Part shown: positions 9,321-27,673 of the stretch, in pieces | Layout: each line of letters starts with the position of its first letter | How positions within the stretch are numbered: position 1 is the first letter of the stretch | Origin: Candidatus Aenigmatarchaeota archaeon | GTDB lineage: Archaea; Aenigmatarchaeota; Aenigmatarchaeia; QMZP01; QMZT01 | NCBI GenBank assembly: GCA_043808015.1 | Contig: JAZDFI010000007.1 | Coordinates: 10,834 to 74,833 of the forward strand | Reading direction: 5' to 3' | DNA length: 64,000 nt | Made by a program: the position numbers and the translations under genes | Notes under the pieces: model-generated | The model's database searches: none | What the model was told of the DNA's origin: nothing | The model's input: only the letters and a program-made list of their open reading frames with translations

Positions 9321-11540
9321 TTATTTGTAAAGCATTGGCCCGTTCTCGACTGGTTTCTTTGAGAAGACCAGCTGCTTTATCTCGGACACGTCGTCCAGCG
9401 AATTCAGCTTTATCTTCATGCCGGATATGGTGTAGAGGATGTTGTCTATGTAGAGACTTCGCTTTACGGAATAGTCGTCGCCGAAGTAATAGTATCCGGC
9501 CTTCTTGAACGTGTCGTCGCTGTCGTAGTGCGTTATGCGCCCTTTAAGCTGGAAGCCATTCTCCAGCGAGATGTCGTAGACGTACGCGCCCTGGTATGTG
9601 TACTCGCCGTATGGCATGCCCCATCCTGGCTTTAGCGCCTGCTGTTTCTGCTCCTCGCTGATTTCCGCAAGCAGTACGGGAATGACCAGCAGGTTCTTCT
9701 CCCTGTCGAACAGGAAAGCCTTGTGGTCCTGAAGCGCATATGAATCCGTTCCCCTGTCGCCTATCACGACCTTGTACATTTCTACCGGATTCGCAACGTC
9801 AGTCACGTCGAAAATCGCCATTTTCACTCCCTGATACCATGCGAAATCCGAAGGCATGCCCTCCTGTGATTCCGCATCGACTGCTTCTTTTCCTATGCCT
9901 ATGATGTGGTTCTCGTCATACGGGTGGAGGTAGTCTGAATAACCCGGGATTTTCAGTTTGCCCAGTATCCGCGGATTCGAATGGTCGGAAAGGTCGAGCA
10001 CGAAGAACGGGTCGATTTTCTTGAAAGTGACCAGATACCCTCGTCCGCCCATGAATCTCGCTGAGTAAATCGTTTCGCCGGGAGCGATGTCCTCGAGCTT
10101 GCCGGTCATCTTGAGGTCGCTGCCGAATACGTAGATGTTGTTCTTACTCTTTTCGGTCTGCTGGCCCATGCGTGACCATGTCTGGCCTATGGTCGTGGCT
10201 ATGCGGAAGTGACTATCGTACTCGTCCATGGAGAACTGGTTGAGTATGTGACCGGGCGCCTCCATGTGGCCGATGTGCGTTATCTGTCCGTCGCTTAGGG
10301 CGAACTGATGAATAAGAGTCGTCTCGGTCGGCGTGACCGGGTTCGTCTCGTCGTAAGTCATCCACATCGGGTAGCTGGTCTCGGCTATGTATATGTTCGA
10401 AAGCGAGGCGTAAACGCTCTGGCCCGAGCCCATGATGACCTGCTTAGCCACGTCGGCCTGAGGATCGTCCATCGAAATCGAAGCGATGGTTATGAAGTTC
10501 TCGGGGTTGACCGGCTCGAAGTAAGCGACTTCGTTGCAGTCAACAGTGTTTACCATCCCGGTGTCTTCAGCGACTTCGCCGGCTTTTCTGTCCCTGAACT
10601 CGGGCAATATGTCTTCCGCGGTCACGGTAGCGGAAGCCTGGCCGGCGTCGGTCGCAGTCGCTCCGCTGTAGAGCACTGGCATTATGCCATAGTTCGGGTA
10701 GGAGTTAACGATGAAATAAACGTATGAGCCAATCTTCCTCGATGAAAGGTAATTGCCCTCGAAATCGACCGAGCGGACCAGCGACGGGCTGGTCCTGTCC
10801 GCGACGTCGTATATCCTCACGGTCGCTAGCTGTATATATCTGTAAGGCTGATAATAATACGGCGGCGCAACCATTTTTTCCGATGCAGTAGAGTCTGGCA
10901 CTGGAGCGCCGGATGAGCCTGAACTGCCCGAGCCGCCATATGCGGCCATTTCTTCCTCAGTGAACGGAATCTGCTTGTTCGTGCTGCCGAATATGAGAAC
11001 GTAATTGCCCTGTATGAACATTTCCTGCGGGTAGAAGTCGCCAAGGTCAAGCTCGCTCAGTATTGCGGCTTCCTCGGCAGGGTATGCTTTTGCTATAACA
11101 AGAGTGCTGTTGCTTCCACCGTAATAGTACCCGGTGGTGAGGGTGTAAATATACTGGCCGTCATTCTTGACTATGTCAGCTTCGTCGACTCCCTCGACCT
11201 GGACATTCGTCTCGGAGTAAGCGACGCCGCCGCCACCGGCGCCGTTCGCACTCGAATCTTTGGATGCGCTCTCGGCCAAGGCCATCGGAGCGCCGGCTGC
11301 GCCGAAAGTCCTCATAAGGCCGCCCTGAAGCGTGTAATAATTCTGAGTTCTGGTCTGGATGTCTTTCAGCTTGTCGGTTATCGCGTTGCACGAGCCAAAC
11401 GTTTGCAGCCGTTCGACCGGCTGCGGGTTGGAAGTGTACGCATAATACGAAACCGCGCCGCTTACCAGAAGAGCCAAAACAAAAAAAACAGCTATTCCTG
11501 CGAAGCCTTTTTTTGAGCCAAGAACCATTTTGCCATTCAT
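9321..11540 (-). CDS. Secreted beta-propeller domain protein (Beta_propel family)
   Basis: YSETNVQVEGVDEADIVKNDG, NQFSMDE, VTFKKIDP, GKLKIPGYSDYLHP; KKG|FAG class III-like signal. Confidence 0.9.
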   Translation of the reverse strand: MNGKMVLGSKKGFAGIAVFFVLALLVSGAVSYYAYTSNPQPVERLQTFGSCNAITDKLKDIQTRTQNYYTLQGGLMRTFGAAGAPMALAESASKDSSANGAGGGGVAYSETNVQVEGVDEADIVKNDGQYIYTLTTGYYYGGSNSTLVIAKAYPAEEAAILSELDLGDFYPQEMFIQGNYVLIFGSTNKQIPFTEEEMAAYGGSGSSGSSGAPVPDSTASEKMVAPPYYYQPYRYIQLATVRIYDVADRTSPSLVRSVDFEGNYLSSRKIGSYVYFIVNSYPNYGIMPVLYSGATATDAGQASATVTAEDILPEFRDRKAGEVAEDTGMVNTVDCNEVAYFEPVNPENFITIASISMDDPQADVAKQVIMGSGQSVYASLSNIYIAETSYPMWMTYDETNPVTPTETTLIHQFALSDGQITHIGHMEAPGHILNQFSMDEYDSHFRIATTIGQTWSRMGQQTEKSKNNIYVFGSDLKMTGKLEDIAPGETIYSARFMGGRGYLVTFKKIDPFFVLDLSDHSNPRILGKLKIPGYSDYLHPYDENHIIGIGKEAVDAESQEGMPSDFAWYQGVKMAIFDVTDVANPVEMYKVVIGDRGTDSYALQDHKAFLFDREKNLLVIPVLLAEISEEQKQQALKPGWGMPYGEYTYQGAYVYDISLENGFQLKGRITHYDSDDTFKKAGYYYFGDDYSVKRSLYIDNILYTISGMKIKLNSLDDVSEIKQLVFSKKPVENGPMLYK

Positions 11541-25075: not shown

Positions 25076-25232
25076 TGCGGGAGCAGGGATTCGAACCCTG
25101 GAAGCTACTAAAGCACTAGGCTTTTCCATGGCTTTTTCAGCCACACCTGAACTTAGCCATACCTAAACTTGGCCATACCAGTCGAAGCGAACTTAGGTAT
25201 TCTAGCCCCTTTGACCGCTTGGGTACCCCCGC
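25076..25232 (-). tRNA. tRNA-Leu with introns at 30/31 and 37/38 and two alternative anticodon micro-exons (UAG 25162-25168; CAG 25146-25152)
   Basis: Mature GCGGGGG-TA-CCC..GGG-G-CTAGG-TT(T/C)AGGG-CCTAG-long variable arm-CAGGG-TTCGAAT-CCCTG-CTCCCGC-A; BHB-like motifs at each junction. Confidence 0.9.
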
Positions 25233-26309: not shown

Positions 26310-26454
26310 TGCCCCGGCCGGGATTTGAACCCGGGTCACCGGCTTTCTTCGTGAAGTCATTGTCTCGCATGGGTCATCCAGCGAAACTCTTACCTTTCGA
26401 GACTTCGAAAAGCACCCGAAAGGCCGGTATCCTTGGCCACTAGACTACCGGGGC
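26310..26454 (-). tRNA. tRNA-Glu(UUC) with 72-nt canonical intron (26345-26416)
   Basis: GCCCCGG acceptor; CCGGC-CT-TTC-G|intron|A-GCCGG; BHB central helix CTTT/GAAG, GTG/CAC. Confidence 0.92.
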
Positions 26455-26541
26455 GTGCCTGATAACAATAATCACTGTGTCTTTTATTTATATATTGATA
26501 AGAGGCGCTGGAAAAAAGCACGTCAAAGCTTTGGAAAAAGA

Positions 26542-26614
26542 TGGGTCCAGCCGGACTCGAACCAGCGATCTTCTGCACGTCAAGCAGACGTCATAGCCAC
26601 TAGACCATGGACCC
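26542..26614 (-). tRNA. tRNA-Val(GAC)
   Basis: GGGTCCA/TGGACCC acceptor; TCTGC-TT-GAC-GT-GCAGA; TTCGAGT T-loop. Confidence 0.95.
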
Positions 26615-26704
26615 GTGACCAGCGAAGGACGCAGGCAAGCCCGCGTCGAAATGCCGCCGGTTTACAACATATTATTCCAATGCGTTTTTATAAATTCGGC
26701 GTGA

Positions 26705-26776
26705 TGGGCCGGAAGGGAATTGAACCCTTGATCTTCGCCGTGTGAAGGCGACGTCATGCCACTAGACCACCAGCCC
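26705..26776 (-). tRNA. tRNA-Val(CAC)
   Basis: GGGCTGG/CCGGCCC acceptor; TCGCC-TT-CAC-AC-GGCGA. Confidence 0.95.
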
Positions 26777-26790
26777 GCCGGCACTATCAA

Positions 26791-27471
26791 TTATTGCAAT
26801 TTATCTTTTAAAAGTAATTCTCCGTTGGCTTCTGTCCTGATCCTGACCAGATCCTTGAGCTGATCCCTGGTGACAATGCTTATCATGGCTCCGCTGCTGC
26901 CAGGCAAGAGAAGTTCCATGTCAGAGAAATCGAGGCCTTCGGCTATTTTCCTGAATTTTTCCACGTATGCATTTTTTTCCTCGGGTTTTTTGTCGGAGAA
27001 CCCCCAGAACGGGTCAAAAACGAACCAGCTGCCGTCGTCCATGGAAACTTCATTTAACGCATGAAACCTGAATCTATTCTTTGTGATAAGCCTTTCAAAG
27101 TCCACGTTTTCGGTATATTTTACCGGAATATCAAAGGCCCTGATAAGCGTGGCGGCAAGCAGCGCGTAATCCAGGCAGTTATGGGCAAAGCCTCTCGGCG
27201 TTCCCGGCTCGCCGTATTTGCCGGCAGACTCTATCACCTGCGAGATTGTCCTTTCCCTGCCGAGTCGACCGCCTATGTTGTTTTTGGTCTCGAAATTCCG
27301 GCCCATAAAACTTCTAACGCCCGCCATAACGGCGCGCTTGTGCGACAGGCCTGAATCGCTTTTGCTCCTGTAAGAAGTGTTATATATGTAGTCTGCCGCA
27401 CGCTTCACTACCTCGTCTCTCTGCGAAAATCTTCCCTCGCCGAGATAGTAAGATGCGTTGTATGGACTCAT
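26791..27471 (-). CDS. Transglutaminase-like protein
   Basis: NCLDYA...FHALNEV...WFVFDP Cys-His-Asp triad. Confidence 0.75.
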   Translation of the reverse strand: MSPYNASYYLGEGRFSQRDEVVKRAADYIYNTSYRSKSDSGLSHKRAVMAGVRSFMGRNFETKNNIGGRLGRERTISQVIESAGKYGEPGTPRGFAHNCLDYALLAATLIRAFDIPVKYTENVDFERLITKNRFRFHALNEVSMDDGSWFVFDPFWGFSDKKPEEKNAYVEKFRKIAEGLDFSDMELLLPGSSGAMISIVTRDQLKDLVRIRTEANGELLLKDKLQ

Positions 27472-27509
27472 ATTACTACTTATAAGTTAATAATTTATAA
27501 ACACTGTTT

Positions 27510-27537
27510 TGGCTGAAATCCGGCTAAAATTCAGCCA
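27510..27537 (-). terminator. Hairpin downstream of tRNA-Ser
   Basis: TGGCTGAA...TTCAGCCA inverted repeat. Confidence 0.4.
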
Positions 27538-27551
27538 TGAAAAAGAAAATA

Positions 27552-27673
27552 CGCTGGGAGCAGGATTTGAACCTGCGCGGGCAGAAGCCCAATGGATTTC
27601 ACGCAATCACAGGCTTTCGCCTCTTCTTATCCATTCGAGTCCATCGCCTTGAACCTAGCTCGGCCATCCCAGC
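27552..27673 (-). tRNA. tRNA-Ser(CGA) with 36-nt canonical intron (27598-27633)
   Basis: GCTGGGA/TCCCAGC-G; ATGGA-CT-CGA-A|intron|A-TCCAT; long variable arm GGGC-TTCT-GCCC. Confidence 0.9.

Follow-up and report, generated by a model that had tools for sequence, protein, structure and literature searches.

We examined a tRNA-Leu gene with two candidate alternative anticodon exons in a 64,000-nucleotide (nt) stretch of contig JAZDFI010000007.1 (the window; forward-strand positions 10,834 to 74,833) from GenBank assembly GCA_043808015.1, a metagenome-assembled genome (MAG) of a Candidatus Aenigmatarchaeota archaeon of the DPANN group. The assembly comprises 934 kb in 39 contigs, is 90.7% complete, and has heavily interrupted tRNA genes. 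It is called G000 below; related genomes likewise bear G-numbers, C-numbers denote contigs of G000 (the window lies on C7), and L-numbers denote loci fetched from G000 or its relatives. The gene occupies 157 nt on the minus strand of the window (25076–25232), encodes no CCA, and has orthologs that are 72–96% identical over the full length. All features described next lie on that strand.

Exon 1 (31 nt; 25202–25232) contains the acceptor 5' strand, the D arm, and the anticodon stem to position 30, ending in ...GGGGCTAG. Exon 3 (25076–25121) starts at position 38 and contains the anticodon stem 3' strand, a long variable arm, the T arm, the acceptor 3' strand, and A73. Between them lie two 7-nt segments, micro-exon A (GTTTAGG, anticodon UAG; 25162–25168) and micro-exon B (GTTCAGG, anticodon CAG; 25146–25152), each corresponding to tRNA positions 31–37 and separated by a 9-nt linker (UAUGGCUAA / TATGGCTAA; 25153–25161). 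At position 30/31, intron 1 would take a short form of 33 nt (25169–25201) in the UAG isoform. Intron 2 would measure 24 nt at the canonical position 37/38 in the CAG isoform (25122–25145) or 40 nt in the UAG isoform (25122–25161).

Several short strands would determine which of these introns forms. The GGCU at tRNA positions 25–28 (25204–25207) is the exon strand of the 4-base-pair central helix in the bulge-helix-bulge (BHB) motif of intron 1 in both of the folds proposed below, state A and state B, pairing with GGCC (A) or GGCY (B) in 20 of 21 orthologs each. A switch strand in intron 1 (AUACCUAAGU; 25191–25200) has two alternative partners, a proximal strand in state A and micro-exon A together with the linker in state B. 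The proximal segment (25171–25179) consists of GGUAU, the partner of the switch strand, and GGCC, the central-helix strand at the splice site before micro-exon A, and is itself a degenerate third copy of a 16-nt repeat. Within the linker, UAU extends the state-B helix, with a compensatory change of UAU to CAC together with AUA to GUG in one ortholog (G006), and GGCU is the state-B central-helix strand, while AUGGCU serves state A, where its pairing with AGCCAU makes up the inner helix of the 40-nt intron 2. This AGCCAU, the common 3' strand of the intron-2 inner helix, and the central-helix strand GGAA lie together at 25124–25133; GGAA pairs with positions 32–35 of either micro-exon with one A-G mismatch.

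The original prediction, made from the letters of the window, held that this single gene yields two Leu isoacceptors through alternative folds of its precursor. Coordinate-based in-silico splicing reproduced the sequence and every coordinate that it had given. The 16-nt tandem duplication was recovered by Tandem Repeats Finder (period 16 nt, 2.6 copies, 88% matches, 25139–25179). Removal of either intron pair in silico left an 84-nt product that ARAGORN called tRNA-Leu(tag) or tRNA-Leu(cag), in keeping with the claim that each 7-nt segment supplies positions 31–37 of a Leu body; both products are standard class II tRNA-Leu with a normal cloverleaf and a long variable arm. The helices named in the prediction exist (GGCU with GGCC or GGCU, AUACC with GGUAU, AUACCUAAG with UUUAGGUAU, and AUGGCU or GUGGCU with AGCCAU), as does the single A-G mismatch in the intron-2 central helix. 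A TTCAG/CTGAA hairpin proposed to bury the CAG exon is present in G000 but is not kept in other orthologs. Central helices of 4 base pairs and 3-nt bulges are in register for all four intron forms, and all four are relaxed BHB motifs, with conserved inner helices, a weak intron-1 outer helix, and one intron-2 mismatch.

The unspliced gene was detected neither by default ARAGORN nor at the Rfam gathering threshold, and at an E-value threshold Rfam matched the 3' part of the gene alone (19.3 bits). The intron mode of ARAGORN labelled the gene Thr(agt) with an 81-nt intron, which is a miscall. By eye, an intron-mode "Leu(cag)" on C8 was a Gln(CUG) gene with a D-loop intron and an intron-mode "Leu(taa)" on C15 was Ala(GGC), and both were set aside.

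The arrangement can be placed among known kinds of disrupted tRNA gene. All pieces are contiguous within 157 nt on one strand, and four Leu 5' ends occur in the genome, which is not the picture of a trans-split gene. Nor are there two complete genes in tandem, as the acceptor stem, the D arm, and the T arm are each present once and the duplicated unit is 16 nt. As in archaeal multi-intron tRNA genes, a canonical tRNA results when the intervening sequences are removed in silico. The two micro-exons occupy the same positions (31–37) and each has its own splice context; that only one of them enters any given tRNA is predicted. Similar internal repeats were sought in 28 tRNA loci of G000 and only the dual Leu gene has one; the Leu(UAA) gene gave one doubtful 11-mer match.

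This tandem arrangement of micro-exons (the twin layout) is present in 21 of the 23 genomes of the family, covering nine of its ten genera. The two genomes without it are G007, which has another dual layout, and G018 (77% complete), in which no dual layout was seen. Both micro-exons are invariant in the 21 distinct genome orthologs, which come from nine genera. Around them, intron 2 is unrelated in sequence and anything from 16 to 67 nt long, the intron-1 loops differ between orthologs, the column after micro-exon B is variable, and the linker varies in each of its parts (TAT, CAC, or TGT; GGCC, GGCT, or GGCA; AA, AG, or GA). Conservation begins and ends abruptly, at the predicted splice sites.

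We extended this comparison to metagenome contigs, with exon 1, the intron, and the central-helix strands as anchors of the search pattern. Only G31 of each micro-exon was fixed in this pattern and the remaining six positions were left free, so circularity was avoided. All 23 matches carry GTTTAGG and GTTCAGG, and 18 of them are new sequences. Across the resulting 39 distinct sequences (21 genome, 18 metagenome) there are zero substitutions in either micro-exon, which bears out the expectation that the second micro-exon would be kept in relatives. When the twin motif was sought in one genome for each prokaryotic species, 21 contigs matched. Archaeal MAGs account for 20 of them, all with the full gene (11 titled Candidatus Aenigmatarchaeota/Aenigmarchaeota, 1 Micrarchaeota, and 8 'uncultured archaeon'), and the 21st, from a bacterium (Parvularculaceae), is an unrelated tandem repeat. 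Outside the anticodon region, extra D- and T-loop introns come and go among orthologs, long ones having been gained or lost between genera. A 13-nt D-loop insert (a TGGCTTCGGCCAA-type hairpin) occurs in the twin Leu genes of L005, L007, L009, L013, and L017 and not in that of G000.

Helix conservation was counted in an alignment of 21 sequences and then in one of 39 (37 distinct rows). The 5' strand of intron 1 has two mutually exclusive pairings, and both are conserved. In the state-A helix, with the proximal strand, 87.8% of 442 cells are paired, compared with 13–41% in slid controls. Two-sided changes occur at four pairs (11 cells), and the covariation score of 0.157 (0.114 in shuffles) was reached by 0 of 500 shuffles; the covariation that the original prediction had proposed to look for in related genomes is found in this helix. 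In the state-B helix, with micro-exon A and three linker bases, 98.8% of 507 cells are paired (11–42% with a slid partner), with two-sided changes at only two pairs, both at linker positions. Changes in the switch strand are compensated in the proximal strand and in the linker and never in micro-exon A, where they give only G-U wobble. At one C/U column of the switch strand, for example, the state-A partner covaries (CG 23, UG 10, UA 4), and the state-B partner, a base of micro-exon A, never changes (CG 23, UG 14). Because micro-exon A stays constant while the switch strand varies, it appears to be held by something besides pairing.

The central strand of intron 2 is the four bases expected to pair with positions 32–35. 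In 13 of the 21 orthologs this strand is UGAA or UGAG, which pairs with both UUUA and UUCA, its G pairing with U34 or C34. It is UAAG or UAAA in five orthologs, perfect with micro-exon A, and GGAA in three, including G000, with one A-G mismatch with either micro-exon. In G000, the linker AUGGCU and the GUGGCU after micro-exon B compete for one AGCCAU strand. As the linker plays a different role in each state, the two intron choices would be coupled and mixed products disfavoured.

Folding energies were computed with hard-constrained folds of an 81–135-nt core under a nearest-neighbour model at 37 °C. With the intron-1 motif enforced alone, state A of G000 came to −27.7 kcal/mol, equal to the unconstrained minimum, and state B to −24.8 kcal/mol; across the 21 orthologs, E(B) − E(A) averaged +0.19 (range −5.6 to +7.1). 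With both motifs of a state enforced, the values for G000 were −20.5 (A) and −21.1 kcal/mol (B). The mean difference in the 21 orthologs was then +0.20 (standard deviation 2.48), with B lower in 9, A lower in 10, and 2 tied. The two folds are conserved and close in modelled energy, as the proposal of near-isoenergetic states had it; the model energies show that neither state is thermodynamically excluded, and nothing beyond that.

Searches of G000 with the 5' and 3' ends of the gene (up to four mismatches) and with a 5'-end pattern each gave four Leu genes, which by eye have the anticodons AAG (C6), UAA (C10), and CAA (C30) or are the dual gene. Many tRNA genes of G000 are too disrupted for the tools, so the statement that there is no other Leu gene rests on these end patterns and on anticodon-arm patterns. 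The 5'-end pattern gave 79 matches in the 23 family genomes (21 twin genes, one dual gene in G007, two non-twin matches in G000, and 55 other loci). Those other than the twin and G007 genes are AAG, UAA, or CAA genes, save two non-tRNA matches; one partly masked locus of G001 was left outside this reading. A pattern for an uninterrupted UAG or CAG arm gave four matches in the family, namely the two copies in the G007 dual gene and two chance matches. Neither pattern revealed a separate Leu(UAG) or Leu(CAG) gene in the 23 family genomes, in line with the original suggestion that such genes might be absent.

Codon use and the remaining Leu tRNAs bear on what the two products would be needed for. 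Among 512 open frames of at least 250 codons in G000, a crude set in which spurious frames are possible, CUG supplies 34.6% of Leu codons, more than any other, and CUA, a rare one, 4.0%. By the wobble rules, a UAG anticodon reads both CUA and CUG. The third CUN tRNA of the family has the anticodon AAG (G000 C6:2677–2816; orthologs L053, L061, L074, L077, L085, L090, L095, L096, L100, and L105). GAG is the usual archaeal anticodon here, and the A34 of AAG is unusual for archaea. A 163-amino-acid deaminase open reading frame in G000 (C5, L116:1471–1959) has TadA as its best NCBIfam match (73 bits, cutoff 150), and decoding with inosine at position 34 is possible in this archaeon. In a separate observation, the Leu(CAA) gene (G000 C30:52703–52861; also L052, L079, L098, L101, and L103) has a strand in its 30/31 intron that is complementary to its own downstream anticodon loop. 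A near-copy of the loop in that intron is the hairpin partner, and the plan is that of the twin gene with a single anticodon.

G000 encodes the enzymes that such a precursor would require. Its splicing endonuclease (395 amino acids; C9, L114:862–2046) matches PDB 4FZ2, the three-unit epsilon2 splicing endonuclease of ARMAN-2, over the full length (E = 2.3e-105). Reports on the ARMAN-2 enzyme describe a broad substrate specificity (PMC3488258, PMC5829648) and cleavage of non-canonical motifs (PDB 4FZ2 and 9W2K; PMC3488258, PMC12397907). An RtcB ligase is also encoded (514.6 bits). The genome thus appears, by homology, to possess both an endonuclease of a type able to cut non-canonical motifs and an RNA ligase. 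The similarity to the ARMAN-2 enzyme extends over all 395 amino acids. The epsilon2 type is reported from Micrarchaeota (PMC5829648), the only hosts named for it in the literature consulted; here it is encoded by an aenigmatarchaeote, and action on the dual-gene substrate is predicted.

We consider it probable, from the comparisons above, that one pre-tRNA-Leu is partitioned between two folds and spliced to Leu(UAG) or Leu(CAG), with exons 1 and 3 common to both. In this model, the archaeal tRNA splicing endonuclease and RtcB would splice a single precursor in two ways. In state A, the 5' strand of intron 1 would pair with GGUAU and so set up the GGCU/GGCC central helix with 3-nt bulges AG/A and AA/G; the 33-nt intron would be removed and micro-exon A joined to exon 1. 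The linker AUGGCU would then pair with AGCCAU, and positions 32–35 of micro-exon A with GGAA, such that a 40-nt intron including micro-exon B is removed. In state B, the 5' strand of intron 1 would pair with micro-exon A and the linker UAU in a helix of 9–10 base pairs, the linker GGCU would become the central-helix strand, and a 49-nt intron including micro-exon A would be removed. GUGGCU would pair with AGCCAU, and the 24-nt intron at 37/38 would be excised. From these patterns we infer that cells cut at both sets of sites, and likewise how much of each product is made and how the gene evolved. The originally proposed interpretation, one gene giving two isoacceptors, is supported at this level.

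A number of observations weigh against this model. All two-sided changes in the state-B helix come from one sequence (G006), and its covariation score was reached by 19 of 500 shuffles. Both intron-1 motifs are relaxed, the outer exon-exon helix having by eye at most 2–3 weak pairs; the intron-2 central helix of G000 has its A-G mismatch; the five of 21 orthologs with UAAG or UAAA have a C-A mismatch with micro-exon B; and many orthologs have a weak intron-2 inner helix in one of the two isoforms. The energies are nearest-neighbour values for 37 °C on a sub-fragment. The exon-complementary intron strand seen by eye in the single-anticodon Leu(CAA) gene means that such pairing alone is no proof of a switch. 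The apparent absence of separate genes is limited by genome completeness of 77–95% and by detection through patterns. Finally, decoding would not need both products, as Leu(UAG) alone can read CUA and CUG and, if A34 of Leu(AAG) becomes inosine, IAG and CAG would together read all four CUN codons. With such an inosine, either isoform alone could complete CUN decoding, and the case for two products rests on conservation and structure and not on necessity.

These points give some room to readings with a single product. The gene might make only the CAG tRNA, by removal of 49 nt at 30/31 and 24 nt at 37/38, with GTTTAGG left as a structural remnant of the duplication. This would accord with the better pairing of the state-B helix (98.8%), with CUG as the dominant Leu codon, and with the G38 of exon 3 and the U32 of both micro-exons, which standalone CAG genes share; CUA could be left to an inosine-bearing Leu(AAG), if the TadA-like protein acts on that tRNA. 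We regard it as unlikely nonetheless. A strand kept for structure should covary, yet 39 sequences show no change in micro-exon A, against changes in its partner and covariation in the linker next to it. The hairpin of the short intron and the GGCC AA/G splice context are conserved with compensatory changes, the intron-2 central strand is perfect with micro-exon A and mismatched with B in five of 21 orthologs, and sister lineages retain a real UAG gene. The converse, in which only the UAG tRNA is made and GTTCAGG is a non-functional duplicate within a canonical 40-nt intron, seems to us quite improbable. In its favour, folding the G000 fragment without constraints gives state A as the energy minimum, none of the 21 orthologs has an intron-2 central strand that pairs better with micro-exon B than with A, and UAG could serve CUA and CUG together. 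Against it, GTTCAGG is invariant in 39 of 39 sequences within an otherwise hypervariable intron, and no conserved pairing partner accounts for this, the TTCAG/CTGAA hairpin not being kept outside G000. It is always preceded by GGCN and 2 nt, in register for a BHB with exon 1. CUG is moreover the most used Leu codon, and genomes without the dual gene retain a CAG gene with an anticodon arm identical to that of isoform B. On either single-product account, the unused 7-mer, with its invariance, its exon-sharp edges, and its complete splice context, is left unexplained.

The gene could also be an artefact, either a misassembly of two paralogous Leu genes or an unprocessed, decaying pseudogene. Standard tRNA finders do not call it and it comes from a draft MAG of 39 contigs, but we find this scarcely credible. 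Independent projects have yielded the same layout in 21 genome assemblies and another 18 metagenome sequences, which excludes the misassembly that the original prediction had named as a risk. The exons are intact with a normal tRNA-Leu fold, and in pattern searches the dual gene is the only candidate decoder of CUA and CUG in every family genome. The model of one precursor with two folds and two products is therefore the one we retain. A more far-reaching version of it is possible, and we advance it tentatively. Alternative splicing of this kind might be lineage-wide in Aenigmatarchaeota and have evolved repeatedly, through duplication of a micro-exon in the family studied here and elsewhere through the joining of UAG and CAG genes in tandem, with the competing helices acting as a tunable switch (kinetic and co-transcriptional, or responsive to temperature or ions) that sets the UAG:CAG ratio to the skewed demand for CUG and CUA.

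Dual UAG/CAG genes are not restricted to the twin layout. In the phylum, 42 of 371 genomes have such genes, including 38 of the 91 in the order, and there are at least three layouts beyond the twin. In one of these (type 2), a 19-nt block from the D-stem 3' strand to position 37 is duplicated, with UAG first and CAG second; it occurs in 7 of the 371 phylum genomes, from four families. In another (type 3), exon 1 runs through the UAG loop (GCTTAGG) and GCTCAGA lies downstream; before it come a strand able to pair with the UAG loop, one strand of a central helix, and 2 nt. Type 3 was found in 13 genomes; the pattern gave 14 matches, of which that in G147 was rejected for having no tRNA context, and a reversed control pattern gave 0. 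Because the GCTCAGA of type 3 would give A37 and not G37, and can form a small hairpin with the preceding GCC, its status as an exon is less secure than in the twin layout. A hybrid dual layout was found in a single genome (G023).

Relatives without this arrangement have separate genes, the state that the dual gene replaced. The sister family (f6) encodes Leu(UAG) and Leu(CAG) in two complete genes of their own, often side by side, with 163 nt between their starts at one locus, and there is one tandem UAG/CAG case in family f5. The anticodon arm of isoform B is identical to that of the standalone Leu(CAG) genes of the sister family. Within the order, 19 genomes have an uninterrupted 15-mer of the CAG arm outside a dual gene, and the seven that were read are all real tRNA genes. 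The same 15-mer was found outside the dual gene in 0 of the 38 dual-gene genomes of the order. The relatives are non-independent, and we therefore attach no statistic to this exclusivity. Matches with different stems, including a second match in G023, were left outside the reading. Arm matches in G015, G029, and G346 were rejected as protein-coding-looking sequence, and one in G022 as the end of an antisense tRNA.

These comparisons suggest how the layouts may have arisen. In the family studied here, the twin layout likely began when a 16-nt unit of a CAG-type gene was duplicated in tandem; U32 in both micro-exons and G38 in exon 3, as in CAG genes, suggest that the duplication came first and a C34-to-U change followed. 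Type 2 looks like a deletion between tandem UAG and CAG genes, and fusion of such a tandem pair is the probable route in other lineages. Arranged from tandem through fused genes to micro-exons, the related families offer a testable path of tRNA gene fragmentation.

Other tRNA genes of G000 gave observations of their own. A cluster on the same strand as the dual Leu gene (minus; window 26310–27673) comprises Glu(UUC) with a 75-nt insert (26310–26454), Val(GAC) (26542–26614), Val(CAC) (26705–26776), and Ser(CGA) with a 38-nt insert (27552–27673). A Val(UAC) gene was not found in G000 with the tRNA tools used, with which a full tRNA inventory was not reached. A 130-nt intron-containing tRNA at C29:79977–80106 has by eye the anticodon UAU (Ile, AUA codon) and is called Ser(tga) by ARAGORN, and two 67-nt tRNA-Thr genes (CGU, C28:46202–46268; GGU, C30:34444–34510) have a shortened D arm. 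A hairpin element of about 30 nt (AAGCYTTTT, 3–4 nt, AAAARGCTT, and an A-rich tail) has nine copies in G000 (C6:2818, C8:33732, C8:61490, C12:1672, C14:40520, C18:24118, C30:52865, C30:57330, and C39:17032), none of them in the window. By position, at least seven copies lie inside tRNA introns or near a tRNA gene, and several sit immediately 3' of such a gene. Sequences resembling the element occur in D- and T-loop introns of Leu genes in related genomes. It could represent a mobile module of introns, or else a signal for processing or termination.

If both products are made, the dual gene would be a gene-compaction device undescribed in the literature searched, with mutually exclusive anticodon exons chosen by the fold. 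A cis alternative form would join introns and split, tri-split, and permuted genes in the range of disrupted tRNA genes, and would be a case of alternative splicing in archaea. Should the switch interpretation also hold, regulated alternative splicing would for the first time be documented in nature for a tRNA, and likewise for an archaeal RNA of any kind. The gene further offers a natural bistable substrate, with a 95-nt core, for the study of site choice by broad-specificity endonucleases. As tRNA finders miss or miscall dual genes, an apparent lack of Leu(UAG) and Leu(CAG) in DPANN genomes of this kind may be an error.

Full-text literature searches, whose coverage excluded most subscription journals and supplements, found no report of alternative tRNA exons in cis. 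The nearest relatives that we found are isoacceptors built from shared pieces. PMC4033280 describes the split tRNA-Glu of Nanoarchaeum equitans, with one 3' half and two 5' halves, and the tri-split tRNA-Gly of Caldivirga maquilingensis; as in the dual gene, isoacceptors come from common pieces that are joined after endonuclease cuts at relaxed BHB motifs. Those systems join separate genes in trans through complementary leaders, whereas the dual gene is one 157-nt unit with competing folds. In intron positions, relaxed motifs, and endonuclease type, the dual gene resembles the multi-intron tRNA genes of Thermoproteales, Korarchaeum, and ARMAN, for which PMC5829648 and PMC4033280 report short introns at 37/38 and 30/31, relaxed motifs, and a broad-specificity endonuclease. 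Each of those genes has one product, and the literature searches turned up none with two alternative exons for the same tRNA positions, as proposed here. In marsupial mitochondria, two anticodons are obtained from one tRNA-Asp/Gly gene by RNA editing. The outcome, two decoders from one gene, is the same, but it is reached there by base deamination and here would be reached by endonuclease and RtcB. In Dscam-type pre-mRNAs, competing RNA helices pick one of several tandem exons. The logic of competing pairings is shared, with the spliceosome there and a protein-only endonuclease plus RtcB here. The enzymes, the motifs, and the idea of sharing exons are thus known, and what would be new is their cis, fold-selected form.

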